From NCBI GenBank assembly GCA_934216505.1, contig CAKQBW010000001.1, positions 20,553 through 84,552 of the forward strand: a stretch of DNA of 64,000 nucleotides, written 5' to 3'. Each line of letters opens with the position of its first letter. The first letter of the stretch is position 1. Below, in pieces: positions 9,411-57,732 of the stretch. A program made the position numbers and the translations under genes. The notes beneath the pieces were generated by a model. It worked only from the letters and a program-made list of their open reading frames with translations. It made no database searches and was not told the origin of the DNA. The DNA comes from an uncultured Alphaproteobacteria bacterium (GTDB lineage Bacteria; Pseudomonadota; Alphaproteobacteria; CAAHEQ01; UBA3637).

Positions 9411-10130
9411 ATGACAGATCCAATTTTTCAAGCCCCTGATATTCCAACGCAAGGCGTAAATGAAGAAAAAACGCCCGAAAGGGAAGCGCAAATGGCTCCA
9501 CAATCGGTGCAACAAAAGCTTGGGTCTTCACAACCTCAAAATGTGCAAGTACAGGCGAGTCCAACACCGCAGGAACCCACTGAGCCTGTATCCCCTGTGT
9601 CGCCTCAAATCCAACCCACTCCGATTCCTCAGCCCGCTCAACCTGAGCCGACTCCTGTAAATCAAGAGGAACAAACAACGGAAACTCAATCGCAAAATCA
9701 AATCAACAATCTAAAGGCAAAATTGGCGGGGTTAGATCTTCAACAGGTGCGTGGAAAGATTCAAACTTATCTGTGGTATGTGTTGGGGGGCTGTTTCCTT
9801 TTGGGACTGATGTTTGGTTGTTCTATGGGGGGAGGCAGTTCTCAACCCGTTCAACAAAAAGTATCAGGTATGGAACGGTTTATTGTTCGCAACAGTGATA
9901 TTCCCCCCAAAGTAAGACGCTGTGGGGTAGTCAATATCTCAACGGAAGCCTGTCGTTATTATGTTTTAAATTCAAATACTTATGACAGGAAAGCGGAGGA
10001 TTTCTTTAAGTTAGTTCAAGATCAGGTAAAAAAGGATGAATATTATATTCGTCAGGTGAATCCTATTTATGCGCAACAACCGATTCACCCAGGGTATTTT
10101 GCCGAAATTTTAGTCCCCGCAACGAAATAG
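9411..10130 (+). CDS. Pro/Gln-rich bitopic membrane protein (N-in, single TM, ~100-aa periplasmic C-domain); possible secretin partner
   Basis: ATG lies 2 nt after the secretin stop. N-terminal 110 aa are P/Q/T-rich. TM segment is IQTYLWYVLGGCFLLGLMFGCSM. A Gly/Ser linker precedes a C-terminal globular part. Confidence 0.5.
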   Translation: MTDPIFQAPDIPTQGVNEEKTPEREAQMAPQSVQQKLGSSQPQNVQVQASPTPQEPTEPVSPVSPQIQPTPIPQPAQPEPTPVNQEEQTTETQSQNQINNLKAKLAGLDLQQVRGKIQTYLWYVLGGCFLLGLMFGCSMGGGSSQPVQQKVSGMERFIVRNSDIPPKVRRCGVVNISTEACRYYVLNSNTYDRKAEDFFKLVQDQVKKDEYYIRQVNPIYAQQPIHPGYFAEILVPATK

Positions 10131-12107: not shown

Positions 12108-13559
12108 ATGAAAATATCTAAAACCGTTTTAAGGATTTTGCTCAATCAATACAATGCTGTGCTGTTGGCTGGATTGTTGGGAACAGTGTTTTCCATACAG
12201 GCGAGGGCAAGTGTTCAAATAACGGGGACTTATGATAATACCACTGAACAAGAAAATGTATCGGTTTCCAGTCCAACCCTTTCGGCCACAACGAAAGCCG
12301 CAGGCGGCGGAAGTGCCAGCGAAAGTTTTACCGCTGATTTGGTAACAACAGATGATTTAGTTACCGCAACCGTTGGAACAGCGGATACTTTGACAGGGCT
12401 GACCGCAACTGTTGAGGAACTCAATTATGTTGATGGGGTTACCAGCAACATTCAAAATCAACTGGATGCGAAACAAGAAACCTTAAATGCTTCCACAGAC
12501 ATCACAGTTGGCAAGATAACGGCCAATGGTGAAATTACGGGAGCGTCCTTATCTGTGGCGGGTGGGGCGATTTCTGGGGGAGCCATTTCTGGGAGTTCCT
12601 TGACGGTGGGTTCATCAAGTGCCATTTCTTCTGTTGATGATGGGGCTAGTGCCTTAACCTCAGGAAATGAGACAACTTTGGCAACAACGGGAACTGTTTT
12701 GAAGTCTGCCGAAAATGCGGCTTATTCAGGGACAACGATTACAGGTGGAACTGCTTCCACTTTGTCTGAGGCCTTAAGTGAAGTGGCCGATCAAGTAAAT
12801 ACAAACACGACCAAAAATACGACCCAAGATACAGGATTAAGTAATTTGGCGGGTAAATTGGGCGTGAGTTATGAGCCCAGTACAGGGGCTGTTGGGGTGA
12901 CGGATTACACTTCCAACAATGTTGTTTCGGACGGCGAAAATGTGGTAGAGGCTATTGGTAAAATTGACACGAAAGTCGGGACAATAACAGGAACGACGAA
13001 TAATATCACAGCGTCTGACACCTTGTCCAAAAACCTCACTGATTTAGATGCCGCCATCGGGGATCGTACCAATTTAGCCAGCAGTAATGCAACCATCAAT
13101 GCGGCGACGACGACTTCGGTTGTTTCTGGACTTCAGGCGACAGGTAATGCTATTGGAGACATGGATTTGACGGGGACAAGGTATATTCTTTCTGCGTCTG
13201 ATTTAACTTCAGCTTCTCGGTTGTTGGATACCAATTTGAATCGTGTAGAGGCTCGTGTGGATAGTTTGGATAAAAAGTATGATGCCCGAATGAATAGTTT
13301 GGATAATAAAATTGACAAAATGGACGATCGGATGAATTCCGGTTTTGCTTCCTTGGCGGCTATGTCAGGATTACAACCCAATGCACGGGCCTGTAATGAC
13401 ACCCAACTTTCCTTGGGGGCTGGGACCTATCGGGGCAAAGTGGGGTATGCGCTGGGGGCTTTCCATTATTTTAATGATAATGTCATGATGAATGTGGGGG
13501 CGTCTTATGCGGGAAATAACAGTACCACTTTCCGTGGGGGAGTTACTTTTGGTTGGTAA
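12108..13559 (+). CDS. trimeric autotransporter adhesin (YadA-like anchor), 483 aa
   Basis: Extended signal peptide. Thr/Ser/Gly-rich passenger. Coiled-coil neck LNRVEARVDSLDKKYDARMNSLDNKIDKMDDRMNSGFASLAAMSGL. C-terminal beta-barrel anchor ends ...GASYAGNNSTTFRGGVTFGW. Confidence 0.75.
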   Translation: MKISKTVLRILLNQYNAVLLAGLLGTVFSIQARASVQITGTYDNTTEQENVSVSSPTLSATTKAAGGGSASESFTADLVTTDDLVTATVGTADTLTGLTATVEELNYVDGVTSNIQNQLDAKQETLNASTDITVGKITANGEITGASLSVAGGAISGGAISGSSLTVGSSSAISSVDDGASALTSGNETTLATTGTVLKSAENAAYSGTTITGGTASTLSEALSEVADQVNTNTTKNTTQDTGLSNLAGKLGVSYEPSTGAVGVTDYTSNNVVSDGENVVEAIGKIDTKVGTITGTTNNITASDTLSKNLTDLDAAIGDRTNLASSNATINAATTTSVVSGLQATGNAIGDMDLTGTRYILSASDLTSASRLLDTNLNRVEARVDSLDKKYDARMNSLDNKIDKMDDRMNSGFASLAAMSGLQPNARACNDTQLSLGAGTYRGKVGYALGAFHYFNDNVMMNVGASYAGNNSTTFRGGVTFGW

Positions 13560-18197: not shown

Positions 18198-18944
18198 ATG
18201 TTTTATCGGGCGGAAAACGGCAGGTCATTGTTGGAAATTATTGCGGTAATGGCGATTATGGGAGTTTTTACGGTGGCCTCTATTGCGGCTTTTCAGGCGG
18301 GGCTAAACTCTGTTCGGGCGAAATATATTATTGAGCAAGTTCAATTAAGGGTGGAAGAAGTGGTGGCCAACTCAGAATTATCAAAGGGTCATAAGAAAAC
18401 CGTCTATACCCCTGAATATGTCAATAAATCTGGGCAAGATAAATATGGCTATTCTTTTAAAACGGTTAATGCGACACAAGGAGATAAGACAATGGCCTTT
18501 ATGTTATTGGGAAATGCAGCTCGATCTCCTACGGTTCAGGTGGAAATTTCGGGTAAAATTTCTTCGGGAATTTGCACCAGTTTAAAGGGAAAAATGGCTA
18601 TCTTGGGGAATGTTGAAAAAGCCACCACTGATAAGGGGGGAGATATTTTAAAAGAACCTTGTCCCGAAGATATTCAAAAAATAACAGTATATGTGAAGAG
18701 AAAAATTAAAAAAATTGTTCGTTCCGGTACAACAGGTCTTTCGGGCCAGACAGGGAGCAGTACCTCTCGTTCATCTTCAGGAATAACAGGCGTGACCACT
18801 CGTGTTGCGGCGCAAAAAAAGTGCAATATTGAAAATGCTCTTTCATGTGATCCATTGGTCTGTGATGAATCAAACGGTTATTATGAATTTGAAGACGAAA
18901 GGGGAAAATGTCAACCTTGTCCTGCTGGAAGTTATTGTGAATAA
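18198..18944 (+). CDS. prepilin-type (type IV pilin-like) protein with C-terminal Cys-rich CPAGSYC motif
   Basis: N-terminus ...ENG|RSLLEIIAVMAIMGVFTVASIAAF has Gly-1, Glu+5 and a hydrophobic helix. C-terminus is ...CDPLVCDESNGYYEFEDERGKCQPCPAGSYCE. Good RBS. Confidence 0.6.
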   Translation: MFYRAENGRSLLEIIAVMAIMGVFTVASIAAFQAGLNSVRAKYIIEQVQLRVEEVVANSELSKGHKKTVYTPEYVNKSGQDKYGYSFKTVNATQGDKTMAFMLLGNAARSPTVQVEISGKISSGICTSLKGKMAILGNVEKATTDKGGDILKEPCPEDIQKITVYVKRKIKKIVRSGTTGLSGQTGSSTSRSSSGITGVTTRVAAQKKCNIENALSCDPLVCDESNGYYEFEDERGKCQPCPAGSYCE

Positions 18945-19020: not shown

Positions 19021-19629
19021 TTGATGAAAATTTCAAAATTATGTTTGACTTTGGCCGTGGCGGGTGTCATCGGTTTGGCTTCAATGGACGCTTTTGCGGC
19101 ACGGGTGAGAAAACCCTGTCCTGCGGGAACTTACTCTAAAGCGGGGGCAACCAGTTTAGCGGGGTGTATTAAGTGTAGTACTTTGGGAATCAATAAGTAT
19201 TCTGCTTCAGAAGGGGCCTCTACCTGTTCTACCTGTCAAGGGGGAAAAATCGCTAATGCTGAGGGAACAGGTTGTATTGATACCTGTAAAAAAGGATATT
19301 TGCTTGTCAATGGTAAATGTATTGCTTGTACAGCAGAAAATAAAAAAGCAGGATTTATTTGTGATGGGACAACAGAATTTACCTGTAAAAAAGGGTATTA
19401 TAAAGCGGGAACGACTTGTAAAACATGTGTGAAAAATGCTGAGTCATGCACCAGTGGGACAGATTTTGTCTGCAAACAAGGGTTCTTTAAACGGGGAACA
19501 GCCTGCGTTGCTTGTCCGACAGGGGCAGGGGTTGAATCTTGTACGCCCGAAGGATTCACATGTAATGTTGGTTTCTATGAAAACAAGGTGACATGTACAA
19601 AATGTGAAGCAGGATATTATTGCGAATAA
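19021..19629 (+). CDS. secreted Cys-rich repeat protein (ephrin-receptor-like / GCC2_GCC3-type CxxCPAGTY modules)
   Basis: Signal peptide MMKISKLCLTLAVAGVIGLASMDAFA. Repeated C-x2-C...G(Y/F)(Y/F) modules: PCPAGTYSKAGATSLAGCIKC, CKKGYYKAGTTCKTC, CKQGFFKRGTACVAC, CTKCEAGYYCE. Confidence 0.6.
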   Translation: MMKISKLCLTLAVAGVIGLASMDAFAARVRKPCPAGTYSKAGATSLAGCIKCSTLGINKYSASEGASTCSTCQGGKIANAEGTGCIDTCKKGYLLVNGKCIACTAENKKAGFICDGTTEFTCKKGYYKAGTTCKTCVKNAESCTSGTDFVCKQGFFKRGTACVACPTGAGVESCTPEGFTCNVGFYENKVTCTKCEAGYYCE

Positions 19630-54470: not shown

Positions 54471-55196
54471 TTATTTTCCCGCCCGACAGAGGGTCAGACA
54501 ATAAACTTTTTGGACTTTGGCTTTTTTCAATACTTTCGCACATTCGTTTAAAGTGGCCCCTGTGGTATAAACATCATCAATTAGAAGAATTTTCTTTCCT
54601 TGGATTTTTTCGGGCGTTGCCACATAAAAAGCCCCGCGCATATTTTCTTGACGTTTTTGTTTGTTCAGGTGGCCTTGTGAAGGTGTATTTCTCTTTCGTT
54701 TTAGAACCAAAGGCTGATATTCTTTTTTAAAATGTTGAGCCAATTTTTGTGCCAAGAGAGCAGATTGATTATACTTTCTTTTAAATAATCGCCTCGCATG
54801 CAAGGGAACAGGTATCAGAACATCGCATTCTTCAATTAAAGGTTTTCCTTTCAGAATCAACCACTTCACAAACAAAGGGGCTAATTCTTGATGGTCGGCG
54901 TGTTTAAAAGGTAAAATGAGGGATTTAATGGTGGTATTATATTGAAAAACGGAAAGGCATTTGTCAAATTTGGGAGGCTTTCTTAAGCATTCCCCGCACA
55001 TTTCTCCAGATAAAATTTCTCTGCCACACAGGGAACAAATATGGTTATTGATAAACTTTAACCCAGAAAAGCACGGACCACACAATAAAAACTCGTCCTG
55101 TAATCTCGCATGACAAATAGGACAATGGGGCGGTAGCAGGAAATTTAAAATTTGTTTAACTAAAGACACCTTGACATCCTTTGGGATAAAAACCAC
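54471..55196 (-). CDS. comF: ComF-family phosphoribosyltransferase-like protein
   Basis: N-terminal 4-Cys zinc finger (CPICHARL...CGPC) and C-terminal PRTase fold LLIDDVYTTGATLNECAKVL. Confidence 0.8.
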   Translation of the reverse strand: MVFIPKDVKVSLVKQILNFLLPPHCPICHARLQDEFLLCGPCFSGLKFINNHICSLCGREILSGEMCGECLRKPPKFDKCLSVFQYNTTIKSLILPFKHADHQELAPLFVKWLILKGKPLIEECDVLIPVPLHARRLFKRKYNQSALLAQKLAQHFKKEYQPLVLKRKRNTPSQGHLNKQKRQENMRGAFYVATPEKIQGKKILLIDDVYTTGATLNECAKVLKKAKVQKVYCLTLCRAGK

Positions 55197-55984: not shown

Positions 55985-56059
55985 GACCCTATCATCTAAT
56001 GGTTAGGATACAGCCCTCTCAAGGCTGGTATACGGGTTCAAATCCCGTTAGGGTCGCCA
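55985..56059 (+). tRNA. tRNA-Glu (anticodon read as CUC)
   Basis: 75-nt cloverleaf: acceptor GACCCTA/TAGGGTC, D-stem ATCT/GGAT, anticodon stem CAGCC/GGCTG with loop CTCTCAA, T-arm ACGGG-TTCAAAT-CCCGT, discriminator G, encoded CCA. Followed by a hairpin plus T-run. Confidence 0.8.
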
Positions 56060-56063
56060 ATAC

Positions 56064-56085
56064 CCCCTGATTGAAGGGGATTTTT
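56064..56085 (+). terminator. hairpin plus T-run after tRNA-Glu
   Basis: CCCCT-gattga-AGGGG followed by ATTTTT. Confidence 0.5.
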
Positions 56086-56353
56086 ATAAAGGATATTTTT
56101 TGTTATTCTTACTTTTTTAAGTTCCTTTGTCCTTCTTATGCAAGCGAGGATTTGTTGGGGATGGTATCGTTCCCGAACAGGTGGAAATTTCGTCAAAGAG
56201 GGCTCTACCCTAACAGATGCCCGAACAGGTCGGGCATGACAATTCCCTGTTTTGGCCTGTATTTACGGGCTGTGTGGGGTAAAAAGAGAGAAGCCTTAAA
56301 ATCCACCTTTCAAACAAGCGATAAAGCCCGTCAATAAAGGGAAGTAAGGTATA

Positions 56354-56373
56354 ACAAAAACGATCGTTTTTGT
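56354..56373. promoter_or_regulatory. perfect palindrome ACAAAAACGATCGTTTTTGT, copy 1 of a candidate operator pair upstream of the pilin-like gene
   Basis: 20-bp perfect inverted repeat; a second copy of the core CAAAAACGATCGTTTTTG lies 134 bp downstream. Confidence 0.5.
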
Positions 56374-56487
56374 CAATATGCTTTTTAGCGTCTTTTTGAA
56401 TTTTGATAATTTTAAAATAACTTATTGATTTTAAATAAGAATTTAATCGTTTGGTCATTTTCTCTCTTTCCACATTTTCCCCTATTC

Positions 56488-56505
56488 CAAAAACGATCGT
56501 TTTTG
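56488..56505. promoter_or_regulatory. perfect palindrome CAAAAACGATCGTTTTTG, copy 2, abutting a TATAGT -10-like hexamer ~45 nt upstream of the pilin-like ATG
   Basis: Identical 18-bp core followed immediately by TTATAGTGGG. Confidence 0.5.
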
Positions 56506-56557
56506 TTATAGTGGGATTCGCAAAGATTTTATTACTTATTTTTGAGGAGGAACTTAT

Positions 56558-57697
56558 ATGAAAAAAACAAAAGAATCAGGTCGCAGTATGGTTGAAATGC
56601 TGGGTGTTTTGGCCATTATTGGGGTGTTGAGTGTGGGCGGTATAGCGGGCTATACGACCGCTATGAACAAACATCGGGCGAATAAGATTTTAAATGGGGC
56701 GTCTGTGCGGGCCATCGTAGTTTCCACGCAAATCCAAAGAGGCTCTGCGGCACCGACACTCGGCGAATTTACAGATAACGAAGTCGGTGGGGCGAGACTT
56801 GGGACAGGTGTTCAAAACGCAGATGGGACAGCTACTTGGACCACAACAGACAAACGCTTTAGTTTGACTTTGACAGGGGTAAATGAAGATATTTGCACCC
56901 AAATGAAAGCCATGAAAGGGGAAAATGGCATCATCAAAGCCATCGCCGATGATTGTACCACGATTACCTATAATAACGATTTAACTGCAACGACTTTCAT
57001 AACGGACAATAAGGATTCCACGAGTTGCGAAAGTGCGGGCGGGGCTTGGAACGAAGCAACCAAGACCTGTGGGTGTCCAGGGCGCTATACAGGCTCTAAT
57101 TGTGAAATCGCCCCTACCACCTGTCCTTCAGAAACAACTCCCACCGAAGGCGGAAAGTGCAAGTGGTGTACTGATGAGGGAGACTGTGTCGTCTGTGAGA
57201 AGGAAGAAGAAGTAAAATGTGCTGACCTCCAATGTGGCTGTTATAACCCTAAAACCGAAAACGCAAAGTGTGGCAACTTTGCCTGTAAAACCTGTGAAAT
57301 AAAGAGTGATACCCCTGATGTTATTTGTGCTGAATACGGTAGTTGTATCTGCTATAACAAAAACACACAGAATGTAAAATGTGGCAACAAAAGATGTGGA
57401 ACCTGTGAAATAAAGAGTGATACCCCTGATGTTATTTGTGCTGAACACGGTAGTTGTATCTGCTATAACAAAAACACACAGAATGCAGGATGTAACAACA
57501 GCTACTGTAAAACCTGTGAACTAAAGAGTGATACCTCTGATGTTATTTGTCCTGGATATGGTGATTGTATCTGTTATAATAAGAACACACAGAATGTAAC
57601 ATGTAACGACTATAGATGTGGAACCTGTGAAATAAAGAGTGATACCCCTATCGCACGATGTGAGGATAATGGCACATGTTCCTGTGTGGCGGAGTAG
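56558..57697 (+). CDS. prepilin-type protein with large Cys-rich tandem-repeat C-terminal domain (379 aa)
   Basis: N-terminus ...SG|RSMVEMLGVLAIIGVLSVGGIAGYTTAMNKHRANKIL is pilin-like. C-terminus holds 4 tandem 37-aa modules CKTCEIKSDTPDVICAEYGSCICYNKNTQNVKCGNKR. Strong RBS GAGGAGG. Confidence 0.6.
   Translation: MKKTKESGRSMVEMLGVLAIIGVLSVGGIAGYTTAMNKHRANKILNGASVRAIVVSTQIQRGSAAPTLGEFTDNEVGGARLGTGVQNADGTATWTTTDKRFSLTLTGVNEDICTQMKAMKGENGIIKAIADDCTTITYNNDLTATTFITDNKDSTSCESAGGAWNEATKTCGCPGRYTGSNCEIAPTTCPSETTPTEGGKCKWCTDEGDCVVCEKEEEVKCADLQCGCYNPKTENAKCGNFACKTCEIKSDTPDVICAEYGSCICYNKNTQNVKCGNKRCGTCEIKSDTPDVICAEHGSCICYNKNTQNAGCNNSYCKTCELKSDTSDVICPGYGDCICYNKNTQNVTCNDYRCGTCEIKSDTPIARCEDNGTCSCVAE
57285..57697 (+). 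repeat. ~3.7 tandem copies of a 111-bp (37-aa Cys-rich) in-frame repeat in the pilin-like gene
   Basis: CCTGTGAAATAAAGAGTGATACCCCTGATGTTATTTGTGCTGAA recurs at 57291 and 57402, with diverged copies at ~57513 and ~57624. Confidence 0.75.
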
Positions 57698-57732
57698 AAA
57701 AGGGGCTGATTGAAGGGCTGTTAAAAAATGGG

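Follow-up and report, generated by a model that had tools for sequence, protein, structure and literature searches.

A polymorphic type IV pilin-like gene with a tandem array of cysteine-rich modules in an uncultured gut alphaproteobacterium

A gene that joins a pilin-like N terminus to a tandem array of cysteine-rich modules raises the question of whether the array grows and shrinks, and whether strains of one bacterium carry different forms of the protein. Such a gene lies in a 64,000-nucleotide (nt) stretch of contig CAKQBW010000001.1 from an uncultured alphaproteobacterium (assembly GCA_934216505.1; hereafter, the window), where it forms a 379-amino-acid (aa) open reading frame (ORF) on the plus strand (Table 1). 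A sequence-only reading of this DNA had proposed that near-identical 111-bp tandem repeats encode four 37-aa modules with 7 Cys each in a pilin-like gene, and that expansion or contraction of the array would lead to size or antigenic variation of a surface-exposed pilin-type adhesin. We consider it probable that the gene encodes a type IV pilin bearing a C-terminal rod of disulfide-rich modules, that its array was shaped by duplication and deletion together with conversion, and that the gene is polymorphic through mosaic exchange.

The repeat itself was examined with two programs. Tandem Repeats Finder reported a single array in the window, at 57289-57649, with a period of 111 nt, 3.3 copies, 84% matches, 0 indels and a score of 533, while an independent repeat search of the window returned three 195-nt copies spaced 111 nt apart with 81-82% identity. 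The 111-bp tandem repeat is genuine and far beyond chance. Read in frame, the array spans 57284-57694, the 3' third of the ORF, and is composed of three full 37-aa units and a terminal unit of 26 aa, not of four 37-aa modules; a further, diverged unit precedes it. Each full unit contains 6 Cys and the terminal unit 5; the count of 7 was an error, as the motif quoted in its support also has 6. The 111-bp period, the tandem arrangement and the reading frame of the earlier description stood up to this analysis, but near-identity did not, since the full units are 88.3%, 85.6% and 79.3% identical in pairwise nt comparisons and the longest exact stretch that they have in common is 46 nt.

The differences between units are unevenly distributed. 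Within unit nt 6-90, units 1 and 2 differ at a single position (1 of the 85 nt of their cores), and the other 12 differences fall at nt 4-5 and 91-111; all 13 are nonsynonymous and none is synonymous. This pattern suggests a recent duplication or a conversion tract beside a fast-changing loop. In the shortened terminal unit, the initial 33 nt match unit 2 exactly, and the remainder resembles the conserved C terminus of other alleles. The diverged module at the upstream edge is an older unit, ancestral to the array.

We compared the locus between strains, beginning with a contig from another metagenome (L001) that carries a positional orthologue upstream of rpmI-rplT. The sequence 3' of the gene is 98-100% identical to the window; inside the gene, comparison in 50-nt steps revealed a 5' half that is a mosaic of 78-100% identity and a repeat region at 36-78%. 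A look-up of the exact window L35 protein gave ten places. In nine of these assemblies (L087-L094 and L096) at least some of the gene is present, and the 2.1 kb downstream of it match the window at 99.3-100% identity. At least five distinct repeat regions occur at this locus, the complete ones having 2, 4, 4 and 5 modules. The window allele, with 4 modules, is found in the window, L089 and L088; an allele of four modules of different sequence in L001, L087 and L092; a five-module allele with cysteine-poor "TPTPY" variants in L090 and L091, with a related form in L096; a partial fourth allele in L093; and a two-module allele in L094, a pig-gut sample. Close family members contain 1 to 7 modules, and whole-module insertions and deletions are visible in alignments of orthologues.

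How the window array came about could be addressed with a module-by-module DNA identity matrix. The three internal modules of the window are each other's closest relatives (77-82%), and its terminal module is nearest to the terminal modules of other alleles (81% to that of L001). Because the internal units are mutual closest relatives, the window array must have expanded locally, by duplication or conversion, after the alleles diverged. Within the window allele, L089 is 100% identical over 834 nt, and L088 matches at 449 of 450 nt over the array with equal copy number; the head segment of L088 (56765-56955) is only 64-76% identical to the window, and its flank differs at 8 positions. Mosaic blocks of 64-76% identity (window against L088) or 36-78% (window against L001) therefore stand amid sequence that is otherwise 96-100% identical. 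Exact 12-residue words drawn from residues 243-362 were absent from all of the other 119 best matches, and N-terminal blocks of the window protein recur in differing combinations in different family members. Taken together, these comparisons indicate a population-level polymorphism that arose by module duplication and deletion together with mosaic recombination. Since L089 and L088 share the window array, nothing points to its expanding or contracting frequently; it appears stable, and the data do not indicate frequent slippage of identical units. The proposal of size variation was thus borne out in part: module number and sequence do vary between strains at one locus, with alleles of 2, 4, 4 and 5 modules beside flanks at least 99.3% identical, but the alleles differ by mosaic segment replacement rather than by plain copy number. 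Likewise, counting copies in related strains, as had been advised, gives different numbers among alleles and the same array in all three assemblies that carry the window allele.

Upstream of ~56211 (compared over 55985-56211), synteny with L001 is lost: genes for tRNA-Glu, TspO and a ComF-like protein are present in the window, and genes for a 780-aa protein and biotin carboxylase in L001. Because synteny with this near-identical contig stops there, the variable pilin gene lies at a rearrangement breakpoint beside a tRNA.

We then asked what kind of protein carries the array. The ORF begins with a prepilin-type motif, MKKTKESG followed by RSMVEMLGVLAIIGVLSVGG, which has the features of a class III signal: a short hydrophilic leader ending in Gly, a stretch of about 21 hydrophobic residues and Glu at +5. 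In an alignment of 45 family members, G8, R9, S10, M11, V12 and E13 are at least 90% conserved. A full-length AlphaFold2 model (mean predicted local distance difference test score [pLDDT], 88.8) places a long N-terminal alpha-1 helix on an antiparallel beta-sheet, as in the pilin fold. A Foldseek search of the full model against the PDB gave no significant match, the top hit being CofB with an E value of 0.73. From motif and fold we conclude that the N-terminal ~140 residues are a pilin module, and the earlier description of the gene as pilin-like is supported. Residues ~70-133 of the head form a second variable, mosaic segment. Between head and array lies a conserved linker in which 21 of 26 residues are invariant among 16 orthologues, including the whole of CPGRYTGSNC; the Gly of CGC varies. 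Of the 38 Cys of the protein, the pilin head accounts for 2 and the tail for 36.

The C-terminal region is predicted to be a stiff stack of beta-hairpins. In the full-length model the rod region has pLDDT values of 94-98, and when the C-terminal 225 residues were modelled separately with 16 orthologues (pLDDT, 93.3; predicted template modelling score, 0.79), four short strands were obtained per 37-residue unit. The Cys of a full unit are spaced C-x2-C-x10-C-x5-C-x-C-x9-C. For an analysis of Cys covariation, we segmented 43 distinct internal modules from orthologues and scored 7 Cys columns, including the first Cys of the following unit. All seven were present in 27 modules; columns e and f were lost together in 9, b and c in 4, both pairs in 1 and a single Cys in 2. 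The e-f pair was thus lost 10 times in total and the b-c pair 5 times, and columns a and d were never lost. Because Cys vanish in pairs, the pattern implies disulfides b-c, e-f and d-a, equivalent to 1-4, 2-3 and 5-6 in either phase, a pairing predicted from covariation. The Cys and a CYN..TQN core are conserved among orthologue modules, and the loops between Cys are variable. An exhaustive phmmer search of 1.84 billion cluster representatives with the repeat region returned 4 matches, 3 of them genuine and all from the same family. The fourth, P0122, was judged spurious: it is a 1983-aa, Ala/Thr/Ser-rich protein with almost no Cys. As genuine matches came from its own family alone, the 37-aa module appears to be restricted to this lineage.

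The full protein has 5979 database relatives at an E value of ≤0.001, some of them named by NCBI as [quoted passage not shown] In species-representative genomes, a scan with the single protein gave nothing and an alignment-based scan found relatives, with at least 571 encoded relatives confirmed among at least 599 pattern matches; among the matches listed, none was close to this species. Nearly all of the 80 loci kept are from metagenome-assembled genomes (MAGs) of uncultured Alphaproteobacteria. Those titles that name a host name ruminants, and from our reading of isolate names rabbit and human isolates are also among the 80. One genome can contain several loci: among the matches listed, MAG SIG60 has nine and RGIG3823 has seven. 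By these counts, the gene belongs to a large multicopy family of uncultured gut Alphaproteobacteria. The pilin part is common to all members and the C termini differ, with Pfam matches to EB/EGF, F5/8 type C, Mucin2 WxxW and pretoxin-HINT domains and many that are unrecognisable; in P0076, the EB and EGF matches lie at the position equivalent to the linker. Close relatives with the same module type occupy unrelated chromosomal sites: behind tuf, next to secE-nusG, in the vicinity of thyX, and downstream of a tRNA-synt_His gene and upstream of rimP. The window holds two further pilin-like genes. That between rplT and rpsD is at least 99% conserved between strains, unlike the repeat gene, and it matches PpdD-type prepilin models weakly (E value, 4.9e-6, far below the cut-off).

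The database calls for P0006, P0008, P0009, P0012, P0014 and P0017 begin ~45 codons early, with MKQLKNQPKCALGRV... or, in the shorter P0017, with MRGHVPCLGR.... This extension is translated conserved upstream DNA and not a real N terminus, and it would mask the prepilin leader from signal predictors. An exact-sequence look-up of homologue P0001 returned no record, and no relevant work on this family in gut Alphaproteobacteria, or on pilins that are cysteine-rich or EGF-like, came up in literature searches.

The nearest known kind is the modular type IV pilin, of which PilB and PilC of Streptococcus sanguinis and CofB of enterotoxigenic Escherichia coli are defined examples (Raynaud et al. 2021, PMC8179133). 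Modular pilins are a known strategy for presenting adhesive modules, and the survey that described them has multi-repeat cases, such as one with 12 copies of a motif (PMC8179133). The window protein has the same architecture, with an N-terminal class III signal, a small pilin module and a grafted C-terminal module that is swapped among members, and the same pilin fold. It differs in that what is grafted on consists of tandem copies of a 37-aa Cys-rich module, which is confined to this lineage and has no Pfam or PDB relative. A further difference is that the gene belongs to a family with many copies per genome and is multi-allelic between near-identical strains.

Its modules also resemble the small disulfide-rich repeats of the eukaryotic EGF-like and EB families. 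They have six Cys in ~37 residues, within the 30-40 residues typical of EGF, with C-x-C between Cys4 and Cys5, and form tandem beta-hairpins in a rod; moreover, the linker carries an EGF-signature-like motif, and P0076 matches Pfam EB and EGF. However, the repeat modules themselves have no Pfam EGF match, and neither sequence nor structure places them in the EGF family. The disulfide pattern of EGF is 1-3, 2-4, 5-6, which conflicts with the 1-4, 2-3, 5-6 pairing implied here by covariation, and an EGF-domain identity for the repeat module was rejected on these grounds.

Two well-known routes to surface variation offer further comparisons. Vlp of Mycoplasma hyorhinis and Vsa of Mycoplasma pulmonis are size-variable repeat surface proteins of multigene families; their repeats are almost the same as each other and undergo frequent change within a clone. 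Like them, the gene studied here belongs to a multigene family with a conserved N-terminal targeting signal and 5' region and with in-frame C-terminal tandem repeats of variable number. Its units are only 79-88% identical, though, all three assemblies with this array have it in unchanged form, and its anchor is a pilin and not a lipoprotein. Antigenic variation of the Neisseria pilin runs by gene conversion between pilE and the promoterless silent cassettes of pilS. Here, too, a type IV pilin has mosaic variable segments among many related copies with conserved ends, but the other copies are complete genes with a start codon and their own conserved upstream region (in four of five aligned loci; not in L004), and no donor-to-recipient conversion within one genome was seen. 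The repeat gene therefore lacks defining features of both systems, as its repeats are not near-identical and its relatives are not silent cassettes.

These observations can be brought together in the following model. The prepilin leader would be cut after Gly8, and the hydrophobic alpha-1 helix would insert the protein into a type IV filament. Each 37-residue module would fold as two short beta-hairpins with probably three disulfides, and stacked modules would form a stiff rod of ~220 residues at the pilin's C-terminal end. By analogy with modular pilins, this rod may point away from the filament, most likely at its tip, and serve as a stalk or a surface for binding; such a role fits because sister proteins have recognisable binding domains at the same position. 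Array length would change by in-frame duplication or deletion of whole 111-bp modules, with a contribution from short conversion tracts, while the loops between Cys diverge quickly. The head segment and the repeat region would be swapped as mosaic blocks among alleles, and probably also among paralogues with the same 5' region and pilin module, such that strains otherwise at least 99% identical would display different rods. The anatomy of the repeat, the motif and fold of the pilin part, the mosaic diversity of the alleles and the paired loss of Cys are shown by the data. That the protein is incorporated into a filament, is exposed at the surface, functions in adhesion and is selected by host, phage or immunity, and likewise the earlier idea of an adhesin under antigenic selection, is what we infer.

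Several results weigh against this model. The residue at +1 is Arg, which is atypical (Phe or Met is usual), and curated prepilin hidden Markov models (HMMs) scored below their cut-offs (PF07963 [N_methyl], 13.3 versus 21.2 bits; TIGR02532, 9.7 versus 16.3). The N-terminal 27 residues were modelled poorly (pLDDT, <50), and Pfam scans of 30 window ORFs detected no prepilin peptidase, pilus assembly or type II secretion machinery. The rod has no Pfam model and no PDB relative, and neither structure nor sequence searches gave it a significant relative whose function is known, which makes binding a guess; the ratio of nonsynonymous to synonymous substitution rates (dN/dS) between units is below 1 in two of three pairs (0.64 and 0.78), and positive selection is not demonstrated. 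In addition, 7 of the 10 contigs recovered with L35 break off within the pilin gene, either in the conserved stretch that encodes the pilin module or directly behind it, and module counts of partial alleles are thus minimums. These breaks are consistent with a multicopy 5' part disrupting short-read assembly. They might also be taken as a sign that the tandem units, or the join between repeat and flank, are mis-assembled paralogous copies. Such an artefact is scarcely credible and was rejected because three independent assemblies (the window, L088 and L089) agree in both array and flank join; the reading frame is also intact, the structure is predicted at very high confidence, and the units differ enough for short reads to be placed. 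The Arg at +1, the subthreshold HMMs, the missing machinery and the NCBI name of the homologues would also suit a protein that is no pilus subunit, such as a type II secretion pseudopilin or an uncleaved membrane anchor tethering a Cys-rich protein in the periplasm or at the cell surface. We find this unlikely, given that a very large family has kept Gly-1 and Glu+5 and that dozens of paralogues with bulky, diverse C termini fit modular pilins better (PMC8179133), pseudopilins being small and few per system.

A passive spacer, a stalk that drifts near-neutrally with strain differences reflecting relaxed constraint and recombination in a multicopy family, would account for the conserved Cys and CYN..TQN core beside variable loops, the dN/dS values of 0.64-0.78, the rigid and repetitive rod that is predicted and the lack of a match to any known binding domain. 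Yet drift alone hardly explains a repeat region at 36-78% identity per 50 nt between flanks at 99.3-100%; nor does it sit well with 13 nonsynonymous and 0 synonymous differences concentrated in one loop of units 1 and 2, or with the discoidin and Mucin2 WxxW binding domains that sister members have at the same position, and we hold this explanation to be doubtful. Alternatively, the array could be a contingency locus, in which long in-frame repeats recombine often within a lineage and cells of a single population frequently change rod length or antigenic type. Homologous recombination could be supported by the exact stretches of 46, 33 and 28 nt common to the units, the near-identical cores of units 1 and 2 imply a recent event, and module number varies both between alleles at the locus and across the family. 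Such switching nonetheless seems quite unlikely: the units are just 79-88% identical, alleles are distinguished by diverged sequence and not by counts of one unit, and 5.8 billion clusters yielded no protein of at least 90% identity in which the copy number differs. That L089 and L088 retain the array, even though L088 differs elsewhere, points in the same direction but with three assemblies is a weak test.

The region upstream of the gene bears on a further possibility. Each of the inverted repeats found there (Table 1), TATAACAAAAACGATCGTTTTTG and CAAAAACGATCGTTTTTGTTATA, includes a palindrome with GATC in it, AAAAACGATCGTTTTT; the second lies directly beside TGTTATAGT and the ribosome-binding site (RBS), and the two repeats could be an operator pair or an inverton. 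A block of ~400 bp upstream, of which this region is a part, is common to paralogues at other loci (L001, L002, L003 and L006), and the block plus RBS is common to four of five aligned loci, the exception being L004, after tuf, which aligns just where the gene call is longer. The region has the same orientation in all five. Neither the native nor the flipped junctions of the 23-nt inverted repeat occurred in metagenome contigs of the Joint Genome Institute, a collection seemingly without this organism, and Rfam detected tRNA-Glu alone in the window and no known RNA element upstream of the gene. It is conceivable, if rather doubtful, that the family is a library of interchangeable adhesin pilins, all with the ~400-bp control region and its bracketing 23-nt inverted repeats, and that, should this region work as a promoter that inverts or switches in some other way, one machine would yield combinatorial, phase-variable tips, with alleles arising by recombination between copies. 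Were this so, a shared pilin handle would carry varied and often eukaryote-like heads, among them Cys-rich rods, discoidin, mucin-2 WxxW and EB/EGF.

An exact 12-nt direct repeat, CTGATTGAAGGG, at 56067-56078 and 57706-57717 brackets the upstream block and the gene. The first copy is in a terminator-like hairpin right after tRNA-Glu and the second right after the stop codon; the repeat could be due to chance or could mark an insertion boundary.

A tandem repeat alone is ordinary, and the family context and strain-level hypervariability of this one are of more interest. Three things are unusual: the array can expand and is built from a disulfide-rich module not described before, the family of paralogues is very large, and the locus is strongly multi-allelic. 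Type IV filaments are thought to gain functions through modules grafted onto pilins, and the gene ranks among the places at which otherwise near-identical strains of this uncultured gut bacterium diverge most. It is thus a candidate for what makes attachment to mucus, host cells or other microbes strain-specific, or for a means of evading phage or immunity. In metagenomes it could also be of use as a marker of strains. The losses of Cys in pairs provide a testable disulfide map for a fold without a solved relative.

Table 1. Positions of the pilin-like gene, its parts and other features in the window
Feature	Position	Strand	Description
Modular type IV pilin-like protein gene	56558-57697	+	379 aa; ATG at 56558, RBS GAGGAGGA just upstream
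Class III (prepilin) signal	56558-56653	+	Leader MKKTKESG ends at Gly8, then RSMVEMLGVLAIIGVLSVGGIAGY; Glu at +5
Pilin head	56630-56983	+	Alpha-1 helix at residues 25-60, then small beta-sheet; Cys113, Cys133
Conserved linker	57026-57103	+	EGF-signature-like motif CGCPGRYTGSNC; fits the regular expression C-x-C-x5-G-x2-C
Diverged first module	~57158-57283	+	CKWC...CYNPKTENAKCGNFA; 42-44% nt identity to later units in ungapped register
Repeat unit 1	57284-57394	+	CKTCEIKSDTPDVICAEYGSCICYNKNTQNVKCGNKR; 37 aa, 6 Cys
Repeat unit 2	57395-57505	+	CGTCEIKSDTPDVICAEHGSCICYNKNTQNAGCNNSY; 37 aa, 6 Cys; 88% nt identity to unit 1
Repeat unit 3	57506-57616	+	CKTCELKSDTSDVICPGYGDCICYNKNTQNVTCNDYR; 37 aa, 6 Cys; 86% nt identity to unit 1, 79% to unit 2
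Terminal shortened unit	57617-57694	+	CGTCEIKSDTPIARCEDNGTCSCVAE; 26 aa, 5 Cys
Upstream control region (putative)	56350-56510	.	Perfect 23-nt inverted repeats at 56350-56372 and 56488-56510, 115 nt apart
ComF-like gene	54471-55196		Near the pilin-like gene
Second pilin-like gene	58515-59024		Between rplT and rpsD; 169 aa, MKTQSG then RSMLEIIGVLAIISVLSVGG
Third pilin-like gene	18198-18944		248 aa, NG then RSLLEIIAVMAIMGVF; Ser/Thr/Gly-rich linker, Cys-rich end
Secreted Cys-rich protein gene	19021-19629		Next after the third pilin-like gene; 202 aa; CPAGTY-type repeats
YadA-like trimeric autotransporter anchor protein	12108-13559		483 aa
190-aa ORF	60446-61018	-	Matches just the C-terminal part of the FliF/YscJ ring protein
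Run of eight ORFs	282-10130	+	223, 496, 997, 408, 384 and 239 aa without Pfam match

Within the run of eight ORFs, the two remaining products are a double HTH_3 protein (325 aa) and a 175-aa protein with a weak, below-cut-off match to MMR1. The secreted Cys-rich protein encoded next to the third pilin-like gene has weak Pfam matches to Giardia VSP and to the TNFR-like domain of ELAPOR1, and it and the third pilin-like protein both end in YCE.

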